Below, in pieces: positions 26,306-57,783 of a stretch of 64,000 nt of DNA; position 1 is the first letter of the stretch; each line of letters begins with the position of its first letter. Source of the DNA: a virus (taxonomy: Duplodnaviria; Heunggongvirae; Uroviricota; Caudoviricetes); the IMG/VR virus record IMGVR_UViG_3300050821_018098. One strand, 5' to 3'. The position numbers were made by a program, and so were the translations under genes. The notes beneath the pieces were generated by a model that was not told the DNA's origin, searched no databases, and was given only the letters and a program-made list of their open reading frames with translations.

Positions 26306-26557
26306 ATGATCTGGCATTATGTACTTTGGACAATATTAGGATATATTATTGGTAGAGCAATGTTTAAATATGTAATCATTTTTTGTAAAGAAATTTTAGA
26401 AATAAAAAAAGGAATGACAATAATATTAACTATCATATCACATATACCTATAGTGAATATGTTATTTTCTCTTTTGTTTTTTATGTTTGTAATTATTTTA
26501 GCTTCTATAGGTTACAGTATCTACTATTTTTTAAAATACATAAAATATATAGACTAA
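26306..26557 (+). CDS. small membrane protein
   Basis: 83-aa ORF, two hydrophobic segments. Confidence 0.3.
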   Translation: MIWHYVLWTILGYIIGRAMFKYVIIFCKEILEIKKGMTIILTIISHIPIVNMLFSLLFFMFVIILASIGYSIYYFLKYIKYID

Positions 26558-26760
26558 TGGAAGAGCAAAGACAAAAATGTATCGTTGAATATCATATAGC
26601 TACTTATTCAGGTGAGGAAATTGTTTACTGTGATAGTAATGATGATAATGATTTTATTATATCAAAAGCGAAGAATCAATTAAAAAGAAAGGCTGGTGTG
26701 TTTCCATTTGGTTACCAATCCTTTAAAATTATTGAACGAGAAGACTATGATGGTGAATAA
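26557..26760 (+). CDS. hypothetical protein
   Basis: 67-aa ORF, start overlapping previous stop. Confidence 0.25.
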   Translation: MEEQRQKCIVEYHIATYSGEEIVYCDSNDDNDFIISKAKNQLKRKAGVFPFGYQSFKIIEREDYDGE

Positions 26761-27029
26761 TGGCTAGAAATGAAAATAAATTATCTTTGATTTATGATAA
26801 AAGACAAAATGATTTTGTTACAAAATTTCCAAGAAGCTGTGATGGTGCTCTAATTATGCATACTTTATTATCTGATATTCTTCGATATAGTTGGGAAAAA
26901 GAATATAAACAACAGAAGCCAGCTTATAATGTATTTAATCTTAAAGAAGAGTTAGAAAGTAGAGGGTATGATTTAACAACTTTAAAGTTTTCTATCGAAC
27001 TGAAAAAATTAGATAGCGAAAGTAAATAG
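26760..27029 (+). CDS. hypothetical protein
   Basis: 89-aa ORF, start overlapping previous stop. Confidence 0.25.
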   Translation: MARNENKLSLIYDKRQNDFVTKFPRSCDGALIMHTLLSDILRYSWEKEYKQQKPAYNVFNLKEELESRGYDLTTLKFSIELKKLDSESK

Positions 27030-27416
27030 TTTATTTTCTTTTAAAAATGAAAAATTATCACCGGCACCCCAACTAAACTTACCAGCTGCTTTTTCAAACC
27101 CATTATATTTCAACATTCTTATTTGTTCATCATCCGAATATTTTACAAAGCAACAATCCTGTTTAGGTTTGAACATATTATTAAATTCAATACCATCAAA
27201 ACGAAGTTCATTATCTGTCTTTCTAGTATCCTGTAAAATATAAGCCTCTTTTATTTGACTTTCAGTGATGTAATTAACAATTTCTACCTGATAACCTTTA
27301 TCTTCAGCAATCCTCATAAGTTTTAACATCCTAAGATTATTCATATCTTCCGAAAGTGAATTATCCCAGGATGTAACTATTAAATATGCATTTTTTGCTT
27401 TTTTCGGTAAATTCAT
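27009..27416 (-). CDS. hypothetical protein
   Basis: 135-aa ORF. Confidence 0.3.
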   Translation of the reverse strand: MNLPKKAKNAYLIVTSWDNSLSEDMNNLRMLKLMRIAEDKGYQVEIVNYITESQIKEAYILQDTRKTDNELRFDGIEFNNMFKPKQDCCFVKYSDDEQIRMLKYNGFEKAAGKFSWGAGDNFSFLKENKLFTFAI

Positions 27417-27437
27417 AACCTATATATTCAAGCCGAA

Positions 27438-28658
27438 TCACAAATAGAGTTCTTGTTTAAATTGTGAATGCCATAAATTCTCAACATGATTTGTAAATAT
27501 TGGCTGAATCATAGCTAGATTACTTTTCTGAAAATAAACAGAATCGTGAACAGTGAAAAGAACTGTCTTAGGATCCTCTTTCTTAATGTCTTTAACAATA
27601 TTATCAAACATTAAAGTTGATTCTATCTTCTGTAACTCCCAGGATAAGGCTCTATAATCGTTAATTTTGTATTTATATTCACTTATCCATCTGTATATTT
27701 TAGGATATATTTTTTTGAATATATTATTGTGCCAACAATGTATAGATTTACCAAAGAAAACTTTAAATATAAGTTTTTTTGCATCGTTCCTAGTAATATC
27801 TGCCTCATTCATAAAATCTTCATAAAACTCACCCTTCCGGACAGCGTTAACAAATCTATCTAATTCATCAGAATCAGAGAAGCCAGACTCTTTAAGAATA
27901 ATTGCTAAGAATAATGGTTGTGCATTTGGTATATCAAGTTCTTCTATCTGTTCACCATGTATAGTCAAGCAATTACTTCTTATATTTTTCTTTAATACAG
28001 TGAAATTTGTATGCATCCTACCAAATTTATCAAATGACCAGAAAAATGATTCGTCTGCAATAGATTCAATACTATATTGGTTTTTTCTATATTGACTTAA
28101 TCTTAAACATCCTATATCATAATAGTTATTTAATAATCTTGCAGCTTTTTCAAAATCAAGTTTTATAAAGTATAAATCTTCTATAAGAGATTTACGAACA
28201 GGATCCAATTCTTTTTGATATCCAGAGGGTTCATCCATATGTGATAACTTATAATCACGCCATTTCTTCATATAAACATTATCAGTACATTTCACCCGGA
28301 TACAGTGTCCCTTACTCACATCACTAGTTAAAGCATAAGTCTTTGCTTTATAACCTACACGGTAATTTGATATCATATCAATAAAACCAACTTGTTCTAA
28401 ATATGAAATATATGCCTTATAGTATCCACCATATTTTTCTTTCACAATATCAGCACAAAGATTTAATGTATCATGACCATTGAAGTGATAATTGATTACA
28501 AAAGTGTGTATCAGATCAAAAAGATAATCTGTTTTAAGATTTTTATTTCCTGACTCAATACTTCTATGTTCTCTCAGGAAGCCTAAGTTTTCAGGGATAA
28601 ATCTTAACACATGTGTCTTATCCATTATTTTTTGTACGAAAAATTCAGATTTATTCAT
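27438..28658 (-). CDS. minimal family-A (PolA/T7-like) polymerase-domain protein lacking exonuclease domains
   Basis: Motif A-like ELDIPNAQPLFLAII (D...Q...LA), motif B/O-helix-like RNDAKKLIFKVFFGKS (RxxAKxxxFxxxFGxS vs RRxAKxxNFGxxYGxS), motif C-like LFTVHDSVYFQ (VHDE-like), in A-B-C order with A-B spacing like Klenow. Confidence 0.5.
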   Translation of the reverse strand: MNKSEFFVQKIMDKTHVLRFIPENLGFLREHRSIESGNKNLKTDYLFDLIHTFVINYHFNGHDTLNLCADIVKEKYGGYYKAYISYLEQVGFIDMISNYRVGYKAKTYALTSDVSKGHCIRVKCTDNVYMKKWRDYKLSHMDEPSGYQKELDPVRKSLIEDLYFIKLDFEKAARLLNNYYDIGCLRLSQYRKNQYSIESIADESFFWSFDKFGRMHTNFTVLKKNIRSNCLTIHGEQIEELDIPNAQPLFLAIILKESGFSDSDELDRFVNAVRKGEFYEDFMNEADITRNDAKKLIFKVFFGKSIHCWHNNIFKKIYPKIYRWISEYKYKINDYRALSWELQKIESTLMFDNIVKDIKKEDPKTVLFTVHDSVYFQKSNLAMIQPIFTNHVENLWHSQFKQELYL

Positions 28659-28939
28659 AAATTATAAAAGGGAAATGTATTAGTTATGTTGCATACTTTA
28701 TGAAAAGTTTTTCTTGTGTAGATAAATATTTAGAAAAAAGTTATTGATAGTACAAAATATATACTAGCAAATTCGCATTACTAACTTAATGAAACATTCG
28801 AATGATATAATTAAAAATTTACGCCTGGAAATAGTAAAAAAGGCTAAAGATTATCAAAGAGATCTTAGAATTGTATACTTGGCTGCATCTACAGAAGTCC
28901 TTAAAGAAGGAGTTAAGGCTAAATAAATTTTTCTTCATA

Positions 28940-29104
28940 TTTTTACCTTCCATTTGAGATGCTTCCACAACTTACAAGGATTTAAGGAAGTGGTTATGGA
29001 ACGGTGTTTTTACCTTCCATTTGAGATGCTTCCACAACAGCAACTCCATATGTCGTAATGAAATAAGGGGTGTTTTTACCTTCCATTTGAGATGCTTCCA
29101 CAAC
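28940..29104 (-). CRISPR. CRISPR-like mini-array: 3 direct repeats (32-35 nt) and 2 unique spacers (31-35 nt), no cas genes in window
   Basis: TTTTTACCTTCCATTTGAGATGCTTCCACAAC at 28940, 29007, 29073. Repeats 2-3 are preceded by GTG, repeat 1 by TA (degenerate terminal repeat). Spacers ttacaaggatttaaggaagtggttatggaacg and agcaactccatatgtcgtaatgaaataagg are unrelated to each other. On the minus strand the repeat reads GTTGTGGAAGCATCTCAAATGGAAGGTAAAAACAC. Confidence 0.6.
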
Positions 29105-29401
29105 ATATCTAGTATAAGTGTCTGTGTATCACTGTATTTCATATTATATTCAGTATAAAGAATATTCCAGATAGATTCATAACTAACATACAAGATATCA
29201 TTTTTCTTATTGTAATACATCCAGGTAAATCCTTCAATATCTTTGAATATTATATTACCCAGATATTCTACATCTAATGAAATAGTAAGCTTTTCTAAAA
29301 TAGAAACAAAGAATGCTTCTGTACTGATTGTTTTTGTTTTAATTATAATTTCTGAAAACATATAGACAAAAGTATGATATAATAATCAAATTAACAATTT
29401 T

Positions 29402-30574
29402 ATGTATCGTAATAACACAGATAAAAACTATCTTGATCTCATAGACTTGATTTATAATCAAGGTGCTACAAAAAGCGATAGAACTGGTACTGGTACCATA
29501 TCCTATTTTGGTCACCAAATGCGATTTAACCTTCTAGAAGGTTTCCCACTAGTAACAGTTAAGAAAACATTTCATAAAGCAATCACACATGAATTATTGT
29601 GGTTTTTAGATGCTGTTGATCCCTATTACAAAGATTATGGTAATACCAATATTAAATATCTTGTTGATAATAAAGTATCAATATGGAATGAGTGGGCTCT
29701 TAAACCATATCTGGAAGCTACAGGTAAAGGACATATTAAACCAAATGCTCCTGAATGGGAGTCTGTCTGGAATGATGAAATGAAAATATTTGTAGAAAAA
29801 GTAAGAACTGATGATGTATTTGCGAAACAGTGGGGTGAACTAGGTCCTGTATATGGTAAACAGTGGACAGATTGGGGTGGTTCAATGCAAATGCTTCCAA
29901 TGCCTGGAACACAAGATGAATATTTTGGAGGATCGTTTGGTGGACCAACACAAGTAAATTTTGCACCATTATCTCTACAACATATTAAAGGAATCAATCA
30001 AATAGAAAATGTAATACATAAACTACGTAATCGTCCCGATGATAGACGTATAATTGTTTCAGCATGGAATGTTTCTGAAATAGATCAAATGGCCCTTCCG
30101 CCATGCCATGCCTTCTTTCAATTTTATTCTTTCGAAATGACTAATGAAGACAGAGTTAAAAGCTTTACACAGTGGGCTCTTAAACATGGTTATGATATAA
30201 CTGGAATGTCCACAGAGAACGCCTTGATACATTATAATTTTCCAAAAAGAAAACTCAATCTACAACTATATCAAAGATCCGTAGATGTCTGCATTGGTTT
30301 GCCATTTAATATAGCTAGTTATGCGTTAATTTTGGAAATGATAGCTCAAGTTACGGATCATTTAGCTTTTGAATTTATACATACTTCAGGAGATGCACAT
30401 ATTTACCTTAATCATATGGATAGTATTGCTGATTTTAAAAATAATGAATCATACCCATTACCAACATTATATCTGGATAGAAATATAAAAGAGCTCTCTG
30501 ATTTCAGAATTGAACATATTAATATAAGTAATTATCAAAGCCATCCTTATATACCACTCAAAGTAGCTGTATAA
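29402..30574 (+). CDS. thyA: thymidylate synthase ThyA (with about 45-aa insertion)
   Basis: DRTGTGT, FGHQMRFNL, DRRIIVSAWN, active-site PCHAFFQFY, QLYQRSVDVCIGLPFNIASYAL (Asn retained, so dUMP-specific). Confidence 0.9.
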   Translation: MYRNNTDKNYLDLIDLIYNQGATKSDRTGTGTISYFGHQMRFNLLEGFPLVTVKKTFHKAITHELLWFLDAVDPYYKDYGNTNIKYLVDNKVSIWNEWALKPYLEATGKGHIKPNAPEWESVWNDEMKIFVEKVRTDDVFAKQWGELGPVYGKQWTDWGGSMQMLPMPGTQDEYFGGSFGGPTQVNFAPLSLQHIKGINQIENVIHKLRNRPDDRRIIVSAWNVSEIDQMALPPCHAFFQFYSFEMTNEDRVKSFTQWALKHGYDITGMSTENALIHYNFPKRKLNLQLYQRSVDVCIGLPFNIASYALILEMIAQVTDHLAFEFIHTSGDAHIYLNHMDSIADFKNNESYPLPTLYLDRNIKELSDFRIEHINISNYQSHPYIPLKVAV

Positions 30575-37238: not shown

Positions 37239-37925
37239 ATGAATACCTGGATAGAATTTATTAAAAACGAATCAGAACAAGAATATTTTCTTTCTTTAAA
37301 AGAAAATTTAAAAATAGAAAAATCTAAAGGAAGGATAATATATCCACCAACTAAACAAATATTTACAGCCTTTGATATTACACCATTCGAAAGTATTAAA
37401 ATTGTAGTATTAGGTATGGATCCCTACATAGGACATAACCAGGCACATGGTTTAGCATTTTCTACACTAGATAAATCAAGGCCTAAGTCATTACAAAATA
37501 TTTGTCAAGAAATTCGTAATGATATCTATACAGAAAAAGAAATGAAAGATATTTTTGTAGGAAGTAATTTAACTTGCTGGGCTAATCAAGGTGTATTTTT
37601 ATTAAATACAACATTAACTGTTCAAGAAGGTTTATCTGGATCACATGAAGGTATAGGTTGGGAAGTTTTTACCGGAAGAGCTATTGATTTAATCGCTAAA
37701 GATCCTACACCAAAAGTGTTTATGTTATGGGGTAAAAAAGCTAAACAATTCAGTAATATTATAAAAGAAGCTGGAAACGATCATTTAATTTTAGAAGCTG
37801 CTCACCCATCACCATTTTCAGCAAGTTCTGGATTCTTTGATTGTAAACATTTTTCAAAAGCAAATATATTTCTTAAGGAAAACGGTTCAAAGAAAATTGA
37901 CTGGAGGATCTGGCCAACAGAATGA
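37239..37925 (+). CDS. ung: uracil-DNA glycosylase, family 1 (UNG)
   Basis: VVLGMDPYIGHNQAHGLAFS (GQDPYH motif), GVFLLNTTLTVQEG, AAHPSPFSA (HPSPLS motif). Confidence 0.85.
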   Translation: MNTWIEFIKNESEQEYFLSLKENLKIEKSKGRIIYPPTKQIFTAFDITPFESIKIVVLGMDPYIGHNQAHGLAFSTLDKSRPKSLQNICQEIRNDIYTEKEMKDIFVGSNLTCWANQGVFLLNTTLTVQEGLSGSHEGIGWEVFTGRAIDLIAKDPTPKVFMLWGKKAKQFSNIIKEAGNDHLILEAAHPSPFSASSGFFDCKHFSKANIFLKENGSKKIDWRIWPTE

Positions 37926-45944: not shown

Positions 45945-48900
45945 CTATGATCCACAAGCCTCACAATTTTCTGGATTATCAAGTGAACAGGATAGTTGAC
46001 TACTAGATTCATCTTCAGTAATTGTTGTAAGTATATCTACTTTCACTGTAGCTTTTTGCTCTACAGTAAATTGAACAGCATCAATACCGGTTTGTGTTCT
46101 TAGATAATACATACCTGTTTTTAAAGCTTTTTGTGGTGTAGTACCATATTTAACATCTAACTCAGATTTAGTAACTCCACCACCCCATCCATAGAAATGC
46201 ATACCATTAAGTTTAGCAAAATTAGGATCTTTCATATAGATATTCATTGATTGTGTTTGATCCATATAAGCTCCACGATCAGCATATTGATCAATAACAT
46301 CTTTTTGACTAATTTCCCAAACTGTTTTGAAAATATCTTTGATATCCTGAGGTATAATATCTATATTTTGTATAGAACCTTTACCACGAATAATCTCATT
46401 CTTCATTGCTTCAGTCCAAAGGCCTCTTTCACAAAGAGTTTTAACTAAATATTTATTTAATACAACAAATTCACCTGAAAGAAGTCTTCTTGTATAAATG
46501 TTAGAAGTTTGAGCTTCGCAACTAGCTTCATTACCAAATATACTTGCTGTTGAAGCTGTAGGCATAGCACAAGTAATCAAACTGTTTCTTATACCATACT
46601 GTTTAATTTTATCTTTTAATGCATCCCAATCGTATCTACCTGGTTCTGGAACTATATTCCACATATCGAATTGAAGAGTACCTTGTGATGCTGGAGAGCC
46701 TTCAAATGTTTCATAAGGACCATCTTTTTTAGCCAAATCACAAGATGCTTTCATAGAAGAATAGTAAATAGTTTCAAATATTTGTTTATTTAAAATTTTT
46801 GCTTCTTCTGAGGCAAAAGGAATTTTTAATTTGAAATATACATCAGCTAAACCTTGTACTCCAAGCCCGATAGGTCTGTGTTTCAAATTAGATTTTTTAG
46901 CTTCTTCTACAGGATAATAGTTAATATCAATAACTTTATTCAAATTAACTGTCGCAACATAAGCAACTTCTTCCAATTTTTTAAAATTAAATGTACCATC
47001 ATCTTTAACAAATCTTGGTAAACATAATGATGCAAGATTACATACAGCTACCTCATCAGGAGCAACATATTCAACGATTTCAAGGCATAAATTCCCATTT
47101 TTTATAACACCAATATTTTTTTGATTAGATTTTACGTTAATCGAATCTTTATAAGCAATATATGGAGCACCAGTTTCAATTTGAGATTCCAATATTTTTT
47201 TCCATAGATCCCGAGCTTTAACTTGTTTTTTGAACTTACCTTCCAGTTCATATTTTTCATAAAGAGTAACAAAATCATCCCCATAAACATCCATTAATCC
47301 AGGAGATTCATTAGGACACATTAAACTCCATACAAGATCTTTCTCAACACGCTGCATAAATAAATCACACATCCATATAGCAGTAAACAAATCTCTTGTA
47401 CGCATCTCTTCTTTACCATTATTCTTTCTTAAATCAAGAAAGTCAAATATATCAGCGTGCCATGGTTCTAAGTACATGGCAAAACTTCCTTTCCTTTTCC
47501 CACCCCCGTTATGAGCTAAACCTATATGTGTAACATACTCATGATTTGTGTCTATTTCAAAATCATATACATTCCCAGCATACTTCGTTTTATTAATATC
47601 AGTAATTCTTGTATAAAGATAATTATCATGCACCATGAAGTTAACCCATTCACCAACTTCTATATTAAACAAATCAGCAATATCTTGAACTTTAGGTATT
47701 CTTATACAGTAACTAACTTTAGCATGTTTACGACCAGATGTATACTCGATATTTCTTCTGTCTCTGATATAACCGGAAGTAAATATACCAAACCGCATTA
47801 ACATATATCTTGTAGATTCAATTACATTTCTTGAAGTCATTTCCAGAGTCAATTCTTTAGAAATACATCCATCAGAGAGCATTAAGCCTTTAAACAAACC
47901 AAGACTTTTATCTTTTGGTAAATGTAAAAGATTTTTATGTATTATTTTTTCAGCATTATGATCATAAAAATATTCCCTATTAAATTTAAATCTTTCGTTT
48001 ATACAAAAATAAATTACTGTCATATTAGGATGATATGTATCATCTAATATAGAATATTTTATTATGTTATCATTAAGATACTGTTCAACAAAAGCTAAAG
48101 CTTCTATATCAGTATTTTCTAAATATATTTTACACTCTGTACTTTCTTTATTAATATACCCATCACCAACAATAATACCATACATTATAGCATCACTAAC
48201 AGAAATACTCGAAATATCTTTTTCATAATTCACTATTGGTGTTACTAGAAAATCATCAACCTTCAAATCTTTTGTTTCAATCCATTCAGGTTTTATTATT
48301 CCTTTTTCCAACCTGTTTTTAATAACAGAATAATTTACGCCTTTCTCTTGTTGTAAAGTAAACATTGGATGTTGTGTTGTAACAATTACTGGATCGATAG
48401 AATGTTTTGTTTCAATAGCAAGAAAATCTTTATGTTGAGCTGGATAACGTCTTGTTCTAAGGACTTCTTGAAATGTTCCATCACTAGTTAAAACTTTATC
48501 ACCTATTACTATTTTACCTATTTGTTTTGGTCCTTCAATAGTATAAATAATAGTTTCATAAGCGAAACACTGATCTACATAGCGAGCTGTGTCATTGTAT
48601 ACACGAAGCATTGGTACAATACCGTTAGAAGTACCATTGGTACCTTTAATATAGGATCCTGTTGCTCTAATATTAGAAATAGAAATTCCTATACCACCAG
48701 CAGCTTGTGAAATTTTAGCACATTGTTTTAATGTGTCATATATTCCATCTATTGAATCGTTTTTCATTTGTAATAAAAAACATGAGCTCATTTGCGGCTT
48801 TTGCGTTCCAGCATTGAATAAACTAGGTGTGGCATGTGTGAAATAAAACTGTGAAATTAAGTTATATGTTTTGATTGCACTCTTAATATCTTTACCATGA

Positions 48901-49451
48901 ATACCAACAGCAGTTCTCATAAAAAGATATTGGGGTCTTTCTATAATTTTCCCGTCAATTTTTAATAGATAAGATTTTTCTAAAGTTTTAAATCCCATAT
49001 AATCCAAAAGAAAATCTCTTGTTTGAATTATAGCTGCATCTATTTCATCTTTGTTTTCTTGAACTATATCATTGAATTCTTTTGAAACAAGTGGTGCATG
49101 TTCACCATTTTCTTTGTTTACATAATCGTACATTTTCTGAGATGTTTCAGAAAAACTTTTGAATGTTTTTTTGTAGAGATTTGTAATAGCTAATCTCGCA
49201 GCTAGATAAGAATAGTCAGGATGTTTTACTGTTAAAACAGCAGCCGTCTCAACGGCTAAATTGTCTAATTGCTCCGATGTAACACCATCATAAAGACCTT
49301 CTACTACTTTTTGTGCAACCTCACTTGGGTTCACCCATAATCTATCTAAGCTAAAGGTTTCACGCTCAATCCTTCCGTAAATTTTATCAAGATTTACGGT
49401 CTCTTTTTTTCCATTACTTTTAATAACTTGCATATTCGTTTTGTAATCCAT
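45945..49451 (-). CDS. nrdA: ribonucleotide reductase class Ia large subunit (R1/NrdA, eukaryote/T4-like type) interrupted by a 354-aa intein
   Basis: ATP-cone N-terminus; [20 protein letters not shown] | intein | [23 protein letters not shown] matches R1 core; C-terminal catalytic NCxE region and C-terminal CxxC tail (CEACGS). Confidence 0.9.
47508..48569 (-). mobile_element. intein (Hint domain + double-LAGLIDADG homing endonuclease) inserted in nrdA between VDQ and GGGKRKG
   Basis: Block [14 protein letters not shown]..., block [10 protein letters not shown] (TxxH), LAGLIDADG motifs [11 protein letters not shown] and [13 protein letters not shown], block [22 protein letters not shown]; +1 residue is Gly (verified at DNA level: gct cat aac ggg ggt ggg aaa). 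Confidence 0.75.
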
Positions 49452-56781: not shown

Positions 56782-57783
56782 ATGAAATGTAATCTTGTTG
56801 TAGATACCAACTTCCTTCTTAATAGAAATGCTTTTGCTTTAGATAAAGAAAAAACTTTGTATGGTGATTTATTAAAGAGTCTTATAACTACCATAGAACT
56901 GTATGAAAGACAGTACCATTATAAAAATGTATTTATAGTATGTGATGCGAAAACATCCTGGAGAAAAATGATTTATGCTGATTATAAAGGTACCAGAAAA
57001 AAAGATGAAAATATGGATTGGGAATTTATTTTCAATACATATGAACAATTTAAACAAGAGATAAAAGAGTCTGGTCGTTATATTTTATTGGAAGGTGATC
57101 ACCTTGAAGGTGATGATTGGGTTTCATATATCGTAAAAGAAAGTAATAAACAAAATGAAAGTTGTGTCATTATAGCATCCGATGTTGACTTAAATCAGAC
57201 TCTTGCAATGAGTCTTAGTCCATTATGGATAAATGTACAGGTGAAAGATATTTTTAAACATGAGAAAGTTTTCTTTCCTGAAAATTATCGATTGTTTATA
57301 AGTAAATTAAAACAAGAAAAAAACAGTCTTTTTAAATTGAATGAAGCACCTATATTCCATCAATTTCTTAATGAGTTAACTAACCGTAGAAAAATAGAAG
57401 AGACATCACCACAAGCTGTAATATTTAAAAAATTGATATCTGGTGATACTGGAGATAATATAAAATCAATAATATTTTCAAGGAATATAAACCCTAAAAC
57501 AGGTAAAGAAACTATTAGAGGTATCGGTGATAAAGGTGCAGAAAAGATTTATGCCGAATACATGAATACTTATCCTGAACTCATAGATTTCACTTCTAAA
57601 ATATTTGCTAAGAGGATAATAGCTATGGTTAAGAAATTTAAGAAAGATACAACAACAGATAATAATATTATTCTCGAAAGATTATTTTTAAATCTTAGAT
57701 TAGTTCATCTGGATACCAGATATATGCCGGAAAATACTAAATTTATTTTAACAGAGAAATATAATCAAACAAGAAAAGTTTAA
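56782..57783 (+). CDS. rnh: 5'-3' exonuclease / flap endonuclease (T4 RNase H / FEN family)
   Basis: VCDAKTSWRKMIYADYKGTRKK (D...R...YKxxR), GDHLEGDDWVSYIV (ExDD), helix-hairpin-helix IRGIGDKGAEKIY. Confidence 0.7.
   Translation: MKCNLVVDTNFLLNRNAFALDKEKTLYGDLLKSLITTIELYERQYHYKNVFIVCDAKTSWRKMIYADYKGTRKKDENMDWEFIFNTYEQFKQEIKESGRYILLEGDHLEGDDWVSYIVKESNKQNESCVIIASDVDLNQTLAMSLSPLWINVQVKDIFKHEKVFFPENYRLFISKLKQEKNSLFKLNEAPIFHQFLNELTNRRKIEETSPQAVIFKKLISGDTGDNIKSIIFSRNINPKTGKETIRGIGDKGAEKIYAEYMNTYPELIDFTSKIFAKRIIAMVKKFKKDTTTDNNIILERLFLNLRLVHLDTRYMPENTKFILTEKYNQTRKV

Follow-up and report, generated by a model that had tools for sequence, protein, structure and literature searches.

Few enzymes have been studied as well as the family-A polymerases, which serve as workhorses of biotechnology. 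The TV-Pols, a family defined by Iyer, Abhiman & Aravind (2008, Biol Direct 3:39, PMC2579912), are 400-600 aa in size, and linkage to a helicase, primase or recombinase is the contextual basis on which they were called primases. CcPol-MP and the PolA-SSB primases are carried by SCCmec and other mobile elements of the Bacillota (Bebel 2020, PMC7581432; Rice 2023, PMC10061031). CcPol-MP is a primase-polymerase that uses dNTPs and represents the only biochemically characterised relative (PMC7581432; PMC10061031). A reclassification of PolA from 2023 distinguished 19 clusters, for which only sequences tagged with PF00476 were sampled (PMC10201439).

Here we describe a phage polymerase family that lies outside all 19 of these clusters. 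The member under study is encoded in a 64,000 nt stretch of a Caudoviricetes genome (virus record IMGVR_UViG_3300050821_018098), which as a whole is called the window in the following. The family is large and uncharacterised, is confined almost entirely to big phages and is missed by standard domain searches. It comprises several thousand sequence clusters that are not seen by the Pfam model defining family-A polymerases, and it is therefore missing from the latest comprehensive classification. Our best explanation as a whole, put forward tentatively, is that of a catalytically competent minimal family-A polymerase that is accessory in a T4-like phage with a clamp-loader-based replisome and acts in a primase-polymerase mode. 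The gene and the parts of its product are arranged as follows:

27438..28658, (-): complete gene of 406 aa, winged helix plus minimal family-A polymerase; stop codon 27438-27440
28284..28658, (-): N-terminal winged-helix (wH) domain of DNA-binding type, residues 1-125
28044..28283, (-): thumb-like, all-helical module, residues 126-205 (helices 127-142, 149-164, 169-181, 187-202)
27999..28040, (-): beta hairpin with R214, residues 207-220 (FGRMHTNFT; strands 207-209 and 215-217)
27888..27953, (-): motif A, residues 236-257, with the catalytic D242 at the strand end, followed by N245-x-Q247-P248
27744..27791, (-): motif B / O-helix, residues 290-305, R290-x3-K294-x3-F298-x3-F302-G303
27528..27560, (-): motif C beta hairpin, residues 367-377 (strands 367-370 and 373-377), T369-V-H371-D372-S373, with D372 as second catalytic Asp

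Along the protein, the winged helix is followed by a short helical thumb, the Arg hairpin and a palm with reduced fingers. Thumb, palm and fingers together amount to about 280 residues, an illustration of the extent to which the Pol I core can shrink with all catalytic residues retained. The fingers are shortened in particular: from the Lys of motif B to the Asp of motif C we counted 78 residues compared to 124 in Klenow, i.e. about 45 fewer. Neither a 3'-5' nor a 5'-3' exonuclease domain was found by Pfam in the 406-aa protein, in agreement with the first-pass annotation. The latter had recognised the polymerase core but had overlooked the winged-helix domain that occupies residues 1-125 instead.

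With the 406-aa query Pfam returned no family at E<=10, including PF00476 (DNA_pol_A) and RNA_pol, and ten distant relatives of the polymerase did not match any Pfam family either. NCBIfam and PDB-sequence HMM searches gave no matches, and single-sequence and profile searches of PHROGs and PADLOC provided nothing useful. The first-pass annotation, which had proposed a family-A enzyme, held that a polymerase without any profile match should be given up, and taken literally the missing DNA_pol_A match is such a case. The predicted structure, however, recovered the family-A palm fold: a right hand of thumb, palm and fingers that is superposable on Klenow or T7 DNAP, at an identity of 12-15% to canonical family-A DNA polymerases. 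Structural matches included Pol nu and Pol theta, and DNAPs outscored RNAPs. As judged from this modelled fold, the absent profile matches reflect divergence and not the absence of a polymerase. The family-A assignment holds because of the structure match and not because of the residue alignment.

Residue conservation was determined for 165 family representatives of at most 50% mutual identity. D242 of motif A and R214 of the hairpin were each kept in 165/165, and two further hairpin residues, H216 and T220, in 162/165 and 160/165, respectively. In motif B, K294 was invariant (165/165), while residue 290 was Arg or Lys in 155 and residue 298 Tyr or Phe in 156 of the 165 sequences. H371 and D372 of motif C were present in 163/165, the remaining two having gaps. 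A profile alignment with E. coli Pol I, which on its own is without statistical significance, paired D242 with D705, Q247 with E710, R290 with R754, K294 with K758 and F302 with Y766; F298 was further paired with Klenow F762, G303 with G767 and HDS with H881-D882-E883. This reproduced exactly the pairing of the first-pass annotation, whose family-A palm and fingers, with the three motifs A, B and C in their proper order, are supported by the structure match. Comparisons by hhalign with single Pol I, T7 DNAP and T7 RNAP sequences had probabilities <1% and served for residue pairing only. In these, R214, the equivalent of Klenow R668, was paired with TGRATHAFPNL of T7 DNAP.

According to the profile alignment, Q247 sits at the steric-gate position (Klenow E710). 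While the order of the motifs is kept, the departures from the canonical PolA motifs are E710->Q, Y766->F and E883->S. The exchanges of Glu to Gln and of Tyr to Phe had been noticed before, but they are family-wide and not peculiar to this copy: residue 247 was Gln in 161/165, His in 4 and Glu in none, and residue 302 was Phe in 148/165 and Tyr in 13. Nature has thus changed, throughout a family, the position that engineers mutate for sugar selectivity. As Gln is isosteric with the Glu of the steric gate and as Phe replaces a Tyr of the T7 RNAP type, a preference for dNTPs would be expected. Y279 is also invariant and lies in the fingers region where TV-Pols have an extra conserved Asp; no such Asp was recognised in the 406-aa protein. 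Overall, we infer catalytic activity and consider the protein very probably an active family-A-type DNA polymerase.

The polymerase gene is directly followed by a small conserved gene:

27009..27416, (-): 135-aa ORF of the conserved small partner ("cluster 1") family, 21 nt downstream of the polymerase

An HMM built from 45 cluster-1 proteins, each encoded right behind the polymerase in another locus, matched this ORF with E=2.9e-8, as the sole significant non-member match among 1,407 ORFs. Such a dedicated partner gene follows the polymerase in 55% of the loci; groups B and C lack it, as do the ungrouped LR756501, LR756504 and LR756511. The partner had no PDB sequence relatives and no detectable similarity to anything, and an AF2 model built from 2 sequences was uninformative on its fold (pLDDT 45). 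Cluster 2 was considered as a ligase partner and rejected: it had no PDB or Pfam support, and in LR756501 and LR756504 a distance of 90-260 kb separates it from the polymerase gene.

The first-pass annotation had given the polymerase an accessory role in a T4-like phage. This is supported by a gp44-like clamp loader, a gp15-like sheath stabiliser, UvsX and a DnaB/gp41-like helicase, all of which are encoded in the window together with a PD-(D/E)XK nuclease. The primase and the replicative polymerase of the phage itself very likely lie outside the window. Two further genes of the window are:

56782-57783: stand-alone 5'-3' exonuclease/FEN
37239-37925: UDG-superfamily glycosylase

The helicases nearest to the polymerase in the window are an XPD-like one at 4.6 kb and the DnaB-like one at 11 kb; in homolog P0005 an XPD-like helicase is 2.4 kb away. 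Across 84 loci we found no helicase, primase or recombinase linked to the polymerase gene, no D5-like helicase, resolvase, integrase or transposase near it, and no conserved neighbouring nuclease. The homing endonuclease (cluster 6) next to the polymerase in group B represents an independent insertion. The tree of the polymerase proteins follows the synteny groups, which indicates vertical inheritance. A search of 185,579 genomes provided only 6 matches, all of them on MAG contigs; neither transposons nor the genomes of bacterial isolates contained the polymerase. A "mobile guest gene", as suggested by neighbours such as homing endonucleases, a Gp23 capsid fragment and tail-sheath genes, was rejected since the tree mirrors synteny and isolate genomes do not contain the gene.

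In the primase-polymerase mode, the winged helix and the 135-aa partner would bring the enzyme to a specific site or structure in the DNA. There, the PolA active site (D242, D372, K294, R214) would begin or extend short DNA stretches with dNTPs, such that the enzyme would act similarly to CcPol-MP and the TV-Pols and not as a processive replicase. De novo priming and the roles of winged helix and partner are drawn by analogy, and we regard this specific role as conceivable yet doubtful. Several observations count against it: the missing helicase, primase or recombinase linkage in the 84 loci; the loci in which the partner is missing (groups B and C, LR756501, LR756504 and LR756511); the Gln gate in place of the Glu of CcPol together with the missing profile-level link to TV-Pols; and the primase and replicative polymerase that the phage very likely has outside the window. 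If priming is true, large phages possess a second, unrecognised priming system.

Some of these observations would suit an accessory polymerase for repair, gap filling or translesion synthesis, i.e. a functional analogue of Pol I, Pol nu or Pol theta, although we consider this rather unlikely. Such an enzyme would fill short gaps in base-excision repair, recombination-dependent replication or Okazaki-fragment maturation, with replication itself being carried out by a clamp-dependent polymerase and the winged helix being a general handle for DNA or protein interactions. No helicase or primase adjoins the polymerase gene, and the window offers the further activities required by such a pathway: a UDG-superfamily glycosylase, a 5'-3' exonuclease/FEN, a PD-(D/E)XK nuclease, UvsX and the XPD-like helicase at 4.6 kb, the latter having a counterpart 2.4 kb from homolog P0005. 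PolAs of repair and TLS moreover typically lack proofreading; Pol nu and Pol theta are examples, and both are among the structural matches. However, the invariable winged-helix fusion and the small partner gene in 55% of the loci are left unexplained, and across the 84 loci no repair gene is adjacent or co-conserved. Were it a repair enzyme, it would fill the role of Pol I in T4-like phages.

It is very unlikely that the protein makes RNA, be it as a single-subunit RNA polymerase of minimal size or as an RNA primase, in the manner of N4 RNAPII or the T7 RNAP core and with the winged helix recognising a promoter or site. DNAPs outscore RNAPs structurally and no Pfam RNA_pol match was obtained. 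A bulky Gln is found at the gate where T7 RNAP has G542, and the equivalent of Y639 is Phe in 148/165. The exchange Y639F lets T7 RNAP accept dNTPs. The protein is furthermore too small for a specificity loop or an intercalating hairpin.

Upstream of the polymerase a short array and an overlapping gene are found:

28936..29105, (-): CRISPR-like mini-array, 3 repeats of 36-37 nt, period 66-67 nt, upstream of the polymerase start at a distance of ~280 nt
28972..29361, (-): small gene that ends in the first array repeat, which makes up its final 36 coding nt (29105..29070); the called ORF continues through two spacers

The spacers are 29-31 nt long and the distal repeat copy is degenerate, a pattern that is also seen in 15 related contigs. 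In related arrays a homologous small ORF reads into each of them, the version of the window being ...YSDTQTLILDM-LWKHLKWKVKTP. The 3' half of the repeat may resemble Cas13b-type repeats. A coding peptide repeat (66-nt period, LxxHxK....TP translation) was rejected, since spacings of 46, 60, 64, 65, 67, 107 and 123 nt disrupt the reading frame and stop codons occur in many of the spacers. Homologous arrays occur at the same offset upstream of the polymerase in L016/L094/L096/L106. Two lineages, whose polymerases are ~39% identical, share a 36-nt repeat array (22/36 identical, ~66-nt period, same strand) that ends 150-300 nt upstream of the polymerase gene in both, while a shuffled control of 400 kb gave 0 matches. 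This recurrence is what favours a coupling in which the polymerase serves the cas-less array, for example by filling gapped, repeat-duplicating intermediates at spacer insertion. Such a coupling is nonetheless highly improbable. The constant neighbour of the array is the small gene ending in the first repeat and not the polymerase, at least five arrays (L098, L099, L100, L103, L105) lack a polymerase despite >=1 kb of downstream sequence, and >80 polymerase loci are without any array. An Rfam search with the repeat gave nothing at E<=1, a host-array search with the repeat in genome contigs had 0 matches, no cas-like ORFs were found on the array-bearing contigs, and no protospacer matches to the spacers were obtained. 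In functional terms the array probably does not belong to the polymerase system. The first-pass view that the adjacency may be coincidental is challenged by the same-offset array in a second, diverged lineage; it is supported by the other small gene being the constant partner and by the >80 array-free polymerase loci.

A catalytically inactive fold reused for DNA binding or regulation, for which one could invoke the shortened fingers (78 vs 124 residues in Klenow), the lack of a family member with demonstrated activity and the known vestigial RRM-only "Pol" partners (Rice 2023, PMC10061031), is hardly credible, since all residues that two-metal catalysis and the binding of dNTPs require show no or almost no variation in the 165 representatives, which is hard to explain without catalysis.

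A bolder and distinctly unlikely reading is that of a third independently streamlined family-A lineage beside TV-Pols and CcPols, in which winged helix and partner would make the enzyme a site-specific synthesis initiator of huge and T4-like phages with relaxed or switched sugar specificity. The pair of Glu->Gln and Tyr->Phe exchanges would then give, for example, ribo-initiated DNA primers. In a more remote variant the polymerase would also service the adjacent gene-seeded spacer-repeat array. Whatever its role, the enzyme is compact, and an annotation gap in many huge-phage genomes can now be closed.

Compared to canonical PolA enzymes (Klenow/Taq, T7 gp5, apicoplast Pol, Pol theta/nu), the phage family differs by HDS instead of HDE and by its Gln instead of Glu gate; it adds the winged-helix N-terminus, has no exonuclease domain and possesses shorter fingers. 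T7-like RNAPs (N4 RNAPII, 6dt7; T7 RNAP core) had lower structural scores than DNAPs, and RNAP-specific insertions are not present in the phage polymerase. At the gate T7 RNAP has G542 and further on Y639, in contrast to Gln247 (161/165) and Phe302 (148/165).

With TV-Pols the family shares the helical thumb, an absolutely conserved Arg in the hairpin, two invariant Asp in the palm and an RxxxK motif in fingers of reduced size. Both are virus-encoded, the 406-aa protein being at the lower bound of the TV-Pol size range. Neither has a fused or linked nuclease, and an extra N-terminal domain is found as in many TV-Pols. Between motifs B and C, the family has an LQxxE element that recurs in the probable TV-Pol of cyanophage Ma-LMM01 (LLQRIE). 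This protein, MAP_030, is probably the published one, judging from PolA-like motifs and transposase neighbours; MAP_134 was rejected as it is a DnaG primase. The family HMM did not match any protein of Ma-LMM01, and hhalign against MAP_030 and its family, a single putative TV-Pol comparator, gave probabilities of 0.1-0.8%. Unlike TV-Pols, the phage polymerase has no linkage to a D5-like helicase, resolvase, integrase or transposase (84 loci) and is inherited vertically in large lytic-type phages with their own replisome, not in transposons. TV-PolN is predicted to be all-helical (PMC2579912), whereas the phage polymerase carries an alpha/beta winged helix.

CcPol differs by its Glu at the gate (E174). 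It lies near the CHEAP PolAs and is called "PolA" by NCBI domain searches, whereas the phage family is invisible to PF00476, and its operon includes a helicase and is located beside a recombinase operon, neither of which is found at the phage loci. The two nevertheless agree in an exonuclease-less PolA subunit with both catalytic Asp, in an identical spacing from motif A to motif B (52 residues) and in a small partner gene directly downstream on the same strand. As in the sole known PolA-based primase, the phage core is tied to a small partner as well as to a domain for DNA targeting.

All peptides quoted in the first-pass annotation for a polymerase-like protein, namely ELDIPNAQPLFLAII (residues 240-254), RNDAKKLIFKVFFGKS (290-305) and VHDSVYF (370-376), were found in one 406-aa ORF. 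Its gene belongs to a 2.35-kb minus-strand island (27009-29361), which consists of a small gene, an array, the polymerase gene and a partner gene:

29361..29070, minus strand: small gene; the called ORF continues to 28972
28936-29105, minus strand: mini-array of three 36-37-nt repeats with 29-31-nt spacers
27438..28658, minus strand: 406-codon ORF with ATG start, the family-A-type polymerase
27009..27416, minus strand: 135-aa ORF starting 21 nt past the polymerase stop and matching the cluster-1 HMM (see below)

Plus-strand genes border the island on both sides (26306-27029 and thymidylate synthase at 29402-30574), and the G+C content around the polymerase gene is 25-34%, i.e. AT-rich. T4-like markers in the window are a gp44-like clamp-loader subunit, a gp15-like tail-sheath stabiliser, a UvsX-like recombinase, a DnaB/gp41-like helicase, a stand-alone 5'-3' exonuclease, UDG, MazG, thymidylate synthase and ribonucleotide reductase. 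No replicative polymerase was found within the 64 kb. The clamp loader implies that one is encoded elsewhere on the 167-kb contig, such that the earlier designation as accessory polymerase is reasonable.

Further features lie elsewhere in the window. An intein that carries a LAGLIDADG homing-endonuclease domain (Hint, Intein_splicing and LAGLIDADG_3 matches at about residues 292-648) splits the large subunit of the ribonucleotide reductase (1,168 aa, 45945-49451, minus strand). For the thymidylate synthase (390 aa, plus strand) the 266-position Pfam model stretches over residues 8-390, which implies an insertion of about 120 residues relative to canonical ThyA. Cargo odd for a phage (24017-26224 and 30673-33790) includes a 735-aa ankyrin-repeat protein, an NfeD-like and SPFH/Band-7 (flotillin-like) pair and a CNNM/CBS-domain membrane protein of a putative Mg2+/divalent-ion transporter family.

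Searches with the 406-aa protein gave no match in Pfam (even at E ≤ 10), NCBIfam or PADLOC and nothing meaningful in PHROGs; neither phmmer nor a 33-sequence profile retrieved a relative from the PDB sequences. Blank profile searches had been named beforehand as speaking against a polymerase, and the searches of Pfam, NCBIfam and PDB sequences were indeed blank; the fold is nonetheless that of a polymerase. The best BFVD match, a 403-aa protein with TM 0.91 and 36% identity, bears the name 'Putative DNA polymerase I [uncultured marine phage]', so the resemblance had been noticed before. A word-indexed search provided 33 relatives, all devoid of Pfam domains, and in 28 of them the match spans 89-98% of the query, with 34-40% identity. 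This is a genuine and large family: when 1.84 billion cluster representatives were searched exhaustively with a profile, 8,455 proteins reached E ≤ 1e-3 and 2,525 reached E ≤ 1e-30, most being 370-470 aa long. Among annotated phage records, homologs occur in the 595-735-kb 'uncultured phage' genomes LR745206 and LR756501-LR756511. A CDS of the 19.6-kb Pinkberry virus (OP947160, locus L006, 1695-2762) labelled 'DNA methyltransferase' is a distant member by the family HMM (E=1.4e-20) and tblastn (27.6% identity over residues 201-380), and its label is probably wrong; with a copy in so small a genome, a replicative or priming role would be well placed for testing. The family appears phage-restricted in a single-peptide-pattern scan of 185,579 species-representative genomes, which gave only 6 matches, all on MAG contigs from unrelated phyla; one of these is the contig of the phage-like locus L001.

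The domain layout was drawn from structural matches combined with the DSSP string:

residues 1-125: winged helix
residues 126-205: four-helix thumb-like module
residues 207-217: hairpin with R214
residues 236-242: motif A strand with D242 at its end
residues 246-361: helical fingers
residues 367-377: motif C hairpin with H371-D372 at the turn
after this hairpin: C-terminal helix

As stated in the first-pass annotation, an exonuclease domain is absent; proofreading is absent too. Four blocks dominate the family alignment: GRxHTNFT; D-I-x-N-S-Q-P; R-x3-K-x3-[YF]-x3-F-G; and LQxxES...T-[VI]-H-D-S. Conservation was further assessed on 165 full-length representatives of at most 50% mutual identity: R214, D242, Y279 and K294 are found throughout and E346, H371 and D372 wherever aligned. 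The two-metal and dNTP-binding residues are invariant. Position 247 is Gln in 161 of the 165 and His in 4, never Glu; at position 302, 148 sequences carry Phe and 13 carry Tyr.

Aligning the family profile to the products of E. coli polA and T7 genes 1 and 5 was non-significant throughout (probability <1%); the Pol I alignment was nevertheless co-linear. At this probability (<1%) it pairs D242 with D705, Q247 with E710, R290/K294/F298/F302/G303 with R754/K758/F762/Y766/G767, Q343 with Q849 and H371-D372-S373 with H881-D882-E883. It thereby reproduces the residue pairing of the first-pass annotation, which had placed three family-A motifs in order with Glu replaced by Gln and Tyr by Phe. In the T7 DNAP alignment (probability <1%) FGRMHTNFTVL lies opposite TGRATHAFPNL, so that R214 corresponds to Klenow R668. 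The spacing from motif A to B is 52 residues versus 53 in Klenow, while that from B to C is 78 versus 124, indicating trimmed fingers. From the topology and the fold match, the two catalytic Asp residues are predicted to be juxtaposed. Overall, the first-pass observation was confirmed and its interpretation supported.

We clustered neighbouring genes across 84 loci (80 IMG/VR contigs, three others and the window) and obtained three main synteny groups: A (about 45 loci, including the 630-640-kb huge phages LR745206 and LR756502), B (13 loci, adjoining a tail sheath of 1,300 aa and in many cases a homing endonuclease of the T5orf172/GIY-YIG type) and C. When the polymerase proteins were placed in a neighbour-joining tree, these groups came out as clades, with the window copy on a deep branch beside locus L013; inheritance of the gene is therefore vertical. 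The group B homing-endonuclease genes (T5orf172/MUG113, GIY-YIG-like, with DUF4379/DUF7487 zinc-finger regions; L025/L094, L028, L029, L037 and L069) sit between polymerase and tail-sheath gene, at times in two or three copies. In 22 group A loci (L038, L041, L044, L045 and others) the ORF just upstream of the polymerase gene (67 aa; for example L076:5714-5917) matches an internal segment of the T4 Gp23 major capsid protein (profile positions 139-185; Pfam E=1.5e-8), and a 258-aa Gp23-like ORF (positions 184-305) lies two genes downstream on the opposite strand. Both look like capsid-gene fragments or paralogues.

Group A further revealed a partner gene, cluster 1: a 179-aa ORF follows the polymerase gene directly on the same strand in 41 loci and one gene further in 4. 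Among 1,407 neighbourhood ORFs, the 135-aa ORF of the window was the sole significant non-member match of the cluster-1 HMM (E=2.9e-8), with Y42, N68, R72, F82, K92-Y93, G106, E108 and S130-F131-x-F133 in common. The polymerase-partner pair is thus conserved in 46 of the 84 loci and spans two deeply separated branches with otherwise unrelated flanks. The partner was not seen near the polymerase gene in groups B and C or in LR756501, LR756504 and LR756511. The partner has no relatives in Pfam, PHROGs or PDB, and its structure prediction from two sequences (pLDDT 45) is unreliable, so no fold, OB-like or other, is readable.

The reported mini-array is real. Arrays homologous to it are present in L016, L094 and 14 metagenome contigs (L095-L108), with 22/36 (61%) repeat identity and a period of about 66 nt; the modules L016:2041-2750 and L094:8490-9246 correspond to window 28936-29361 (minus strand). 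In every array the final 36 nt of a conserved small gene (about 110 aa) double as first repeat; in the window this gene ends ...YSDTQTLILDM-LWKHLKWKVKTP. The downstream repeats are separated by unrelated spacers of about 30 nt, and the most distal one is degenerate. The spacings are irregular and stops occur in frame, which excludes a maintained coding repeat. No cas gene was found on the array contigs, no protospacer match for the spacers, and no Rfam repeat family or host array. The array's true partner is the small gene, and the module could be a gene-seeded 'neo-array'.

Several features suggest an active, dNTP-using enzyme. In Klenow a Glu steric gate blocks the 2'-OH (Astatke 1998, as cited in PMC10201439), and the Gln of the family is isosteric with it; where T7 RNAP has Tyr (Y639) the family has Phe; and DNAPs are better structural matches than RNAPs. 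For the function of the polymerase we tentatively favour a site-targeted DNA primase-polymerase. An initiating enzyme must keep hold of its template while no primer is present, a point made for CcPol-MP and T7 RNAP (PMC7581432, PMC10061031); the ever-present winged helix and the dedicated small partner fit this need and would together provide such a hold. Nearly as likely, and on balance doubtful, is a repair or gap-filling polymerase, given that the phage carries UDG, FEN, nuclease and recombination genes and that helicase linkage is missing from the polymerase loci. An RNA-synthesising enzyme is improbable. Coupling to the neighbouring array, whose adjacency had been called possibly coincidental, is very unlikely: in five arrays with enough downstream sequence the polymerase gene does not follow. 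It does lie 150-300 nt after the array in the window and one other lineage (L016, L094, L096, L106), so coincidence is not the whole account, but we do not treat this recurrence as functional linkage. A dead polymerase fold is the least probable reading.

The family marks a considerable gap in how polymerases are classified and huge phages annotated, and it opens directly onto testable biochemistry. The reclassification of PolAs into 19 clusters (Czernecki et al. 2023; PMC10201439) drew on PF00476-tagged UniProt entries, so a family lacking this match was left out by design; none of the 19 clusters resembles it. TV-Pols were defined by Iyer, Abhiman and Aravind 2008 (PMC2579912) as 400-600-aa proteins with a minimal superfamily-A core (coiled-coil thumb, Arg hairpin, two-Asp palm, HTH-like fingers with RxxxK), found in viruses and transposons and never linked to nucleases. 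They were predicted to be primase-polymerases from their linkage to D5-like helicases or resolvases/transposases. The 406-aa protein has this structure, but its 84 loci lack any association with a helicase, primase, integrase, resolvase or transposase. The cyanophage Ma-LMM01, listed as a TV-Pol carrier in 2008 (PMC2579912), gave no match to the family HMM. Its MAP_030 (L008:22746-24266, 506 aa), a 'hypothetical protein' beside two transposase genes, has PolA-like motifs (NYDVVKCH / GTVKTAVLAVINGA / LLQRIE / QHDG) and is probably the reported TV-Pol; it has no Pfam match and its GenBank entry is still unannotated. Profile-profile comparison with MAP_030 reached at most 0.8% probability and aligned only the common LQxxE patch. 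Since the context is missing and no sequence-level link could be shown, we describe the protein as a TV-Pol-grade minimal PolA and do not file it as a TV-Pol. The only characterised TV-Pol, CcPol of SCCmec (Bebel 2020; PMC7581432), extends primers alone and makes DNA primers de novo from dNTPs together with MP, a small protein encoded immediately downstream; it retains the Glu steric gate (E174) and F225. The polymerase is not a new enzyme class. It is an uncharacterised variant among the minimal exonuclease-less family-A polymerases of TV-Pol/CcPol grade, set apart by its winged-helix N-terminus, family-wide Gln steric gate, lineage-restricted small partner and restriction to large phages.
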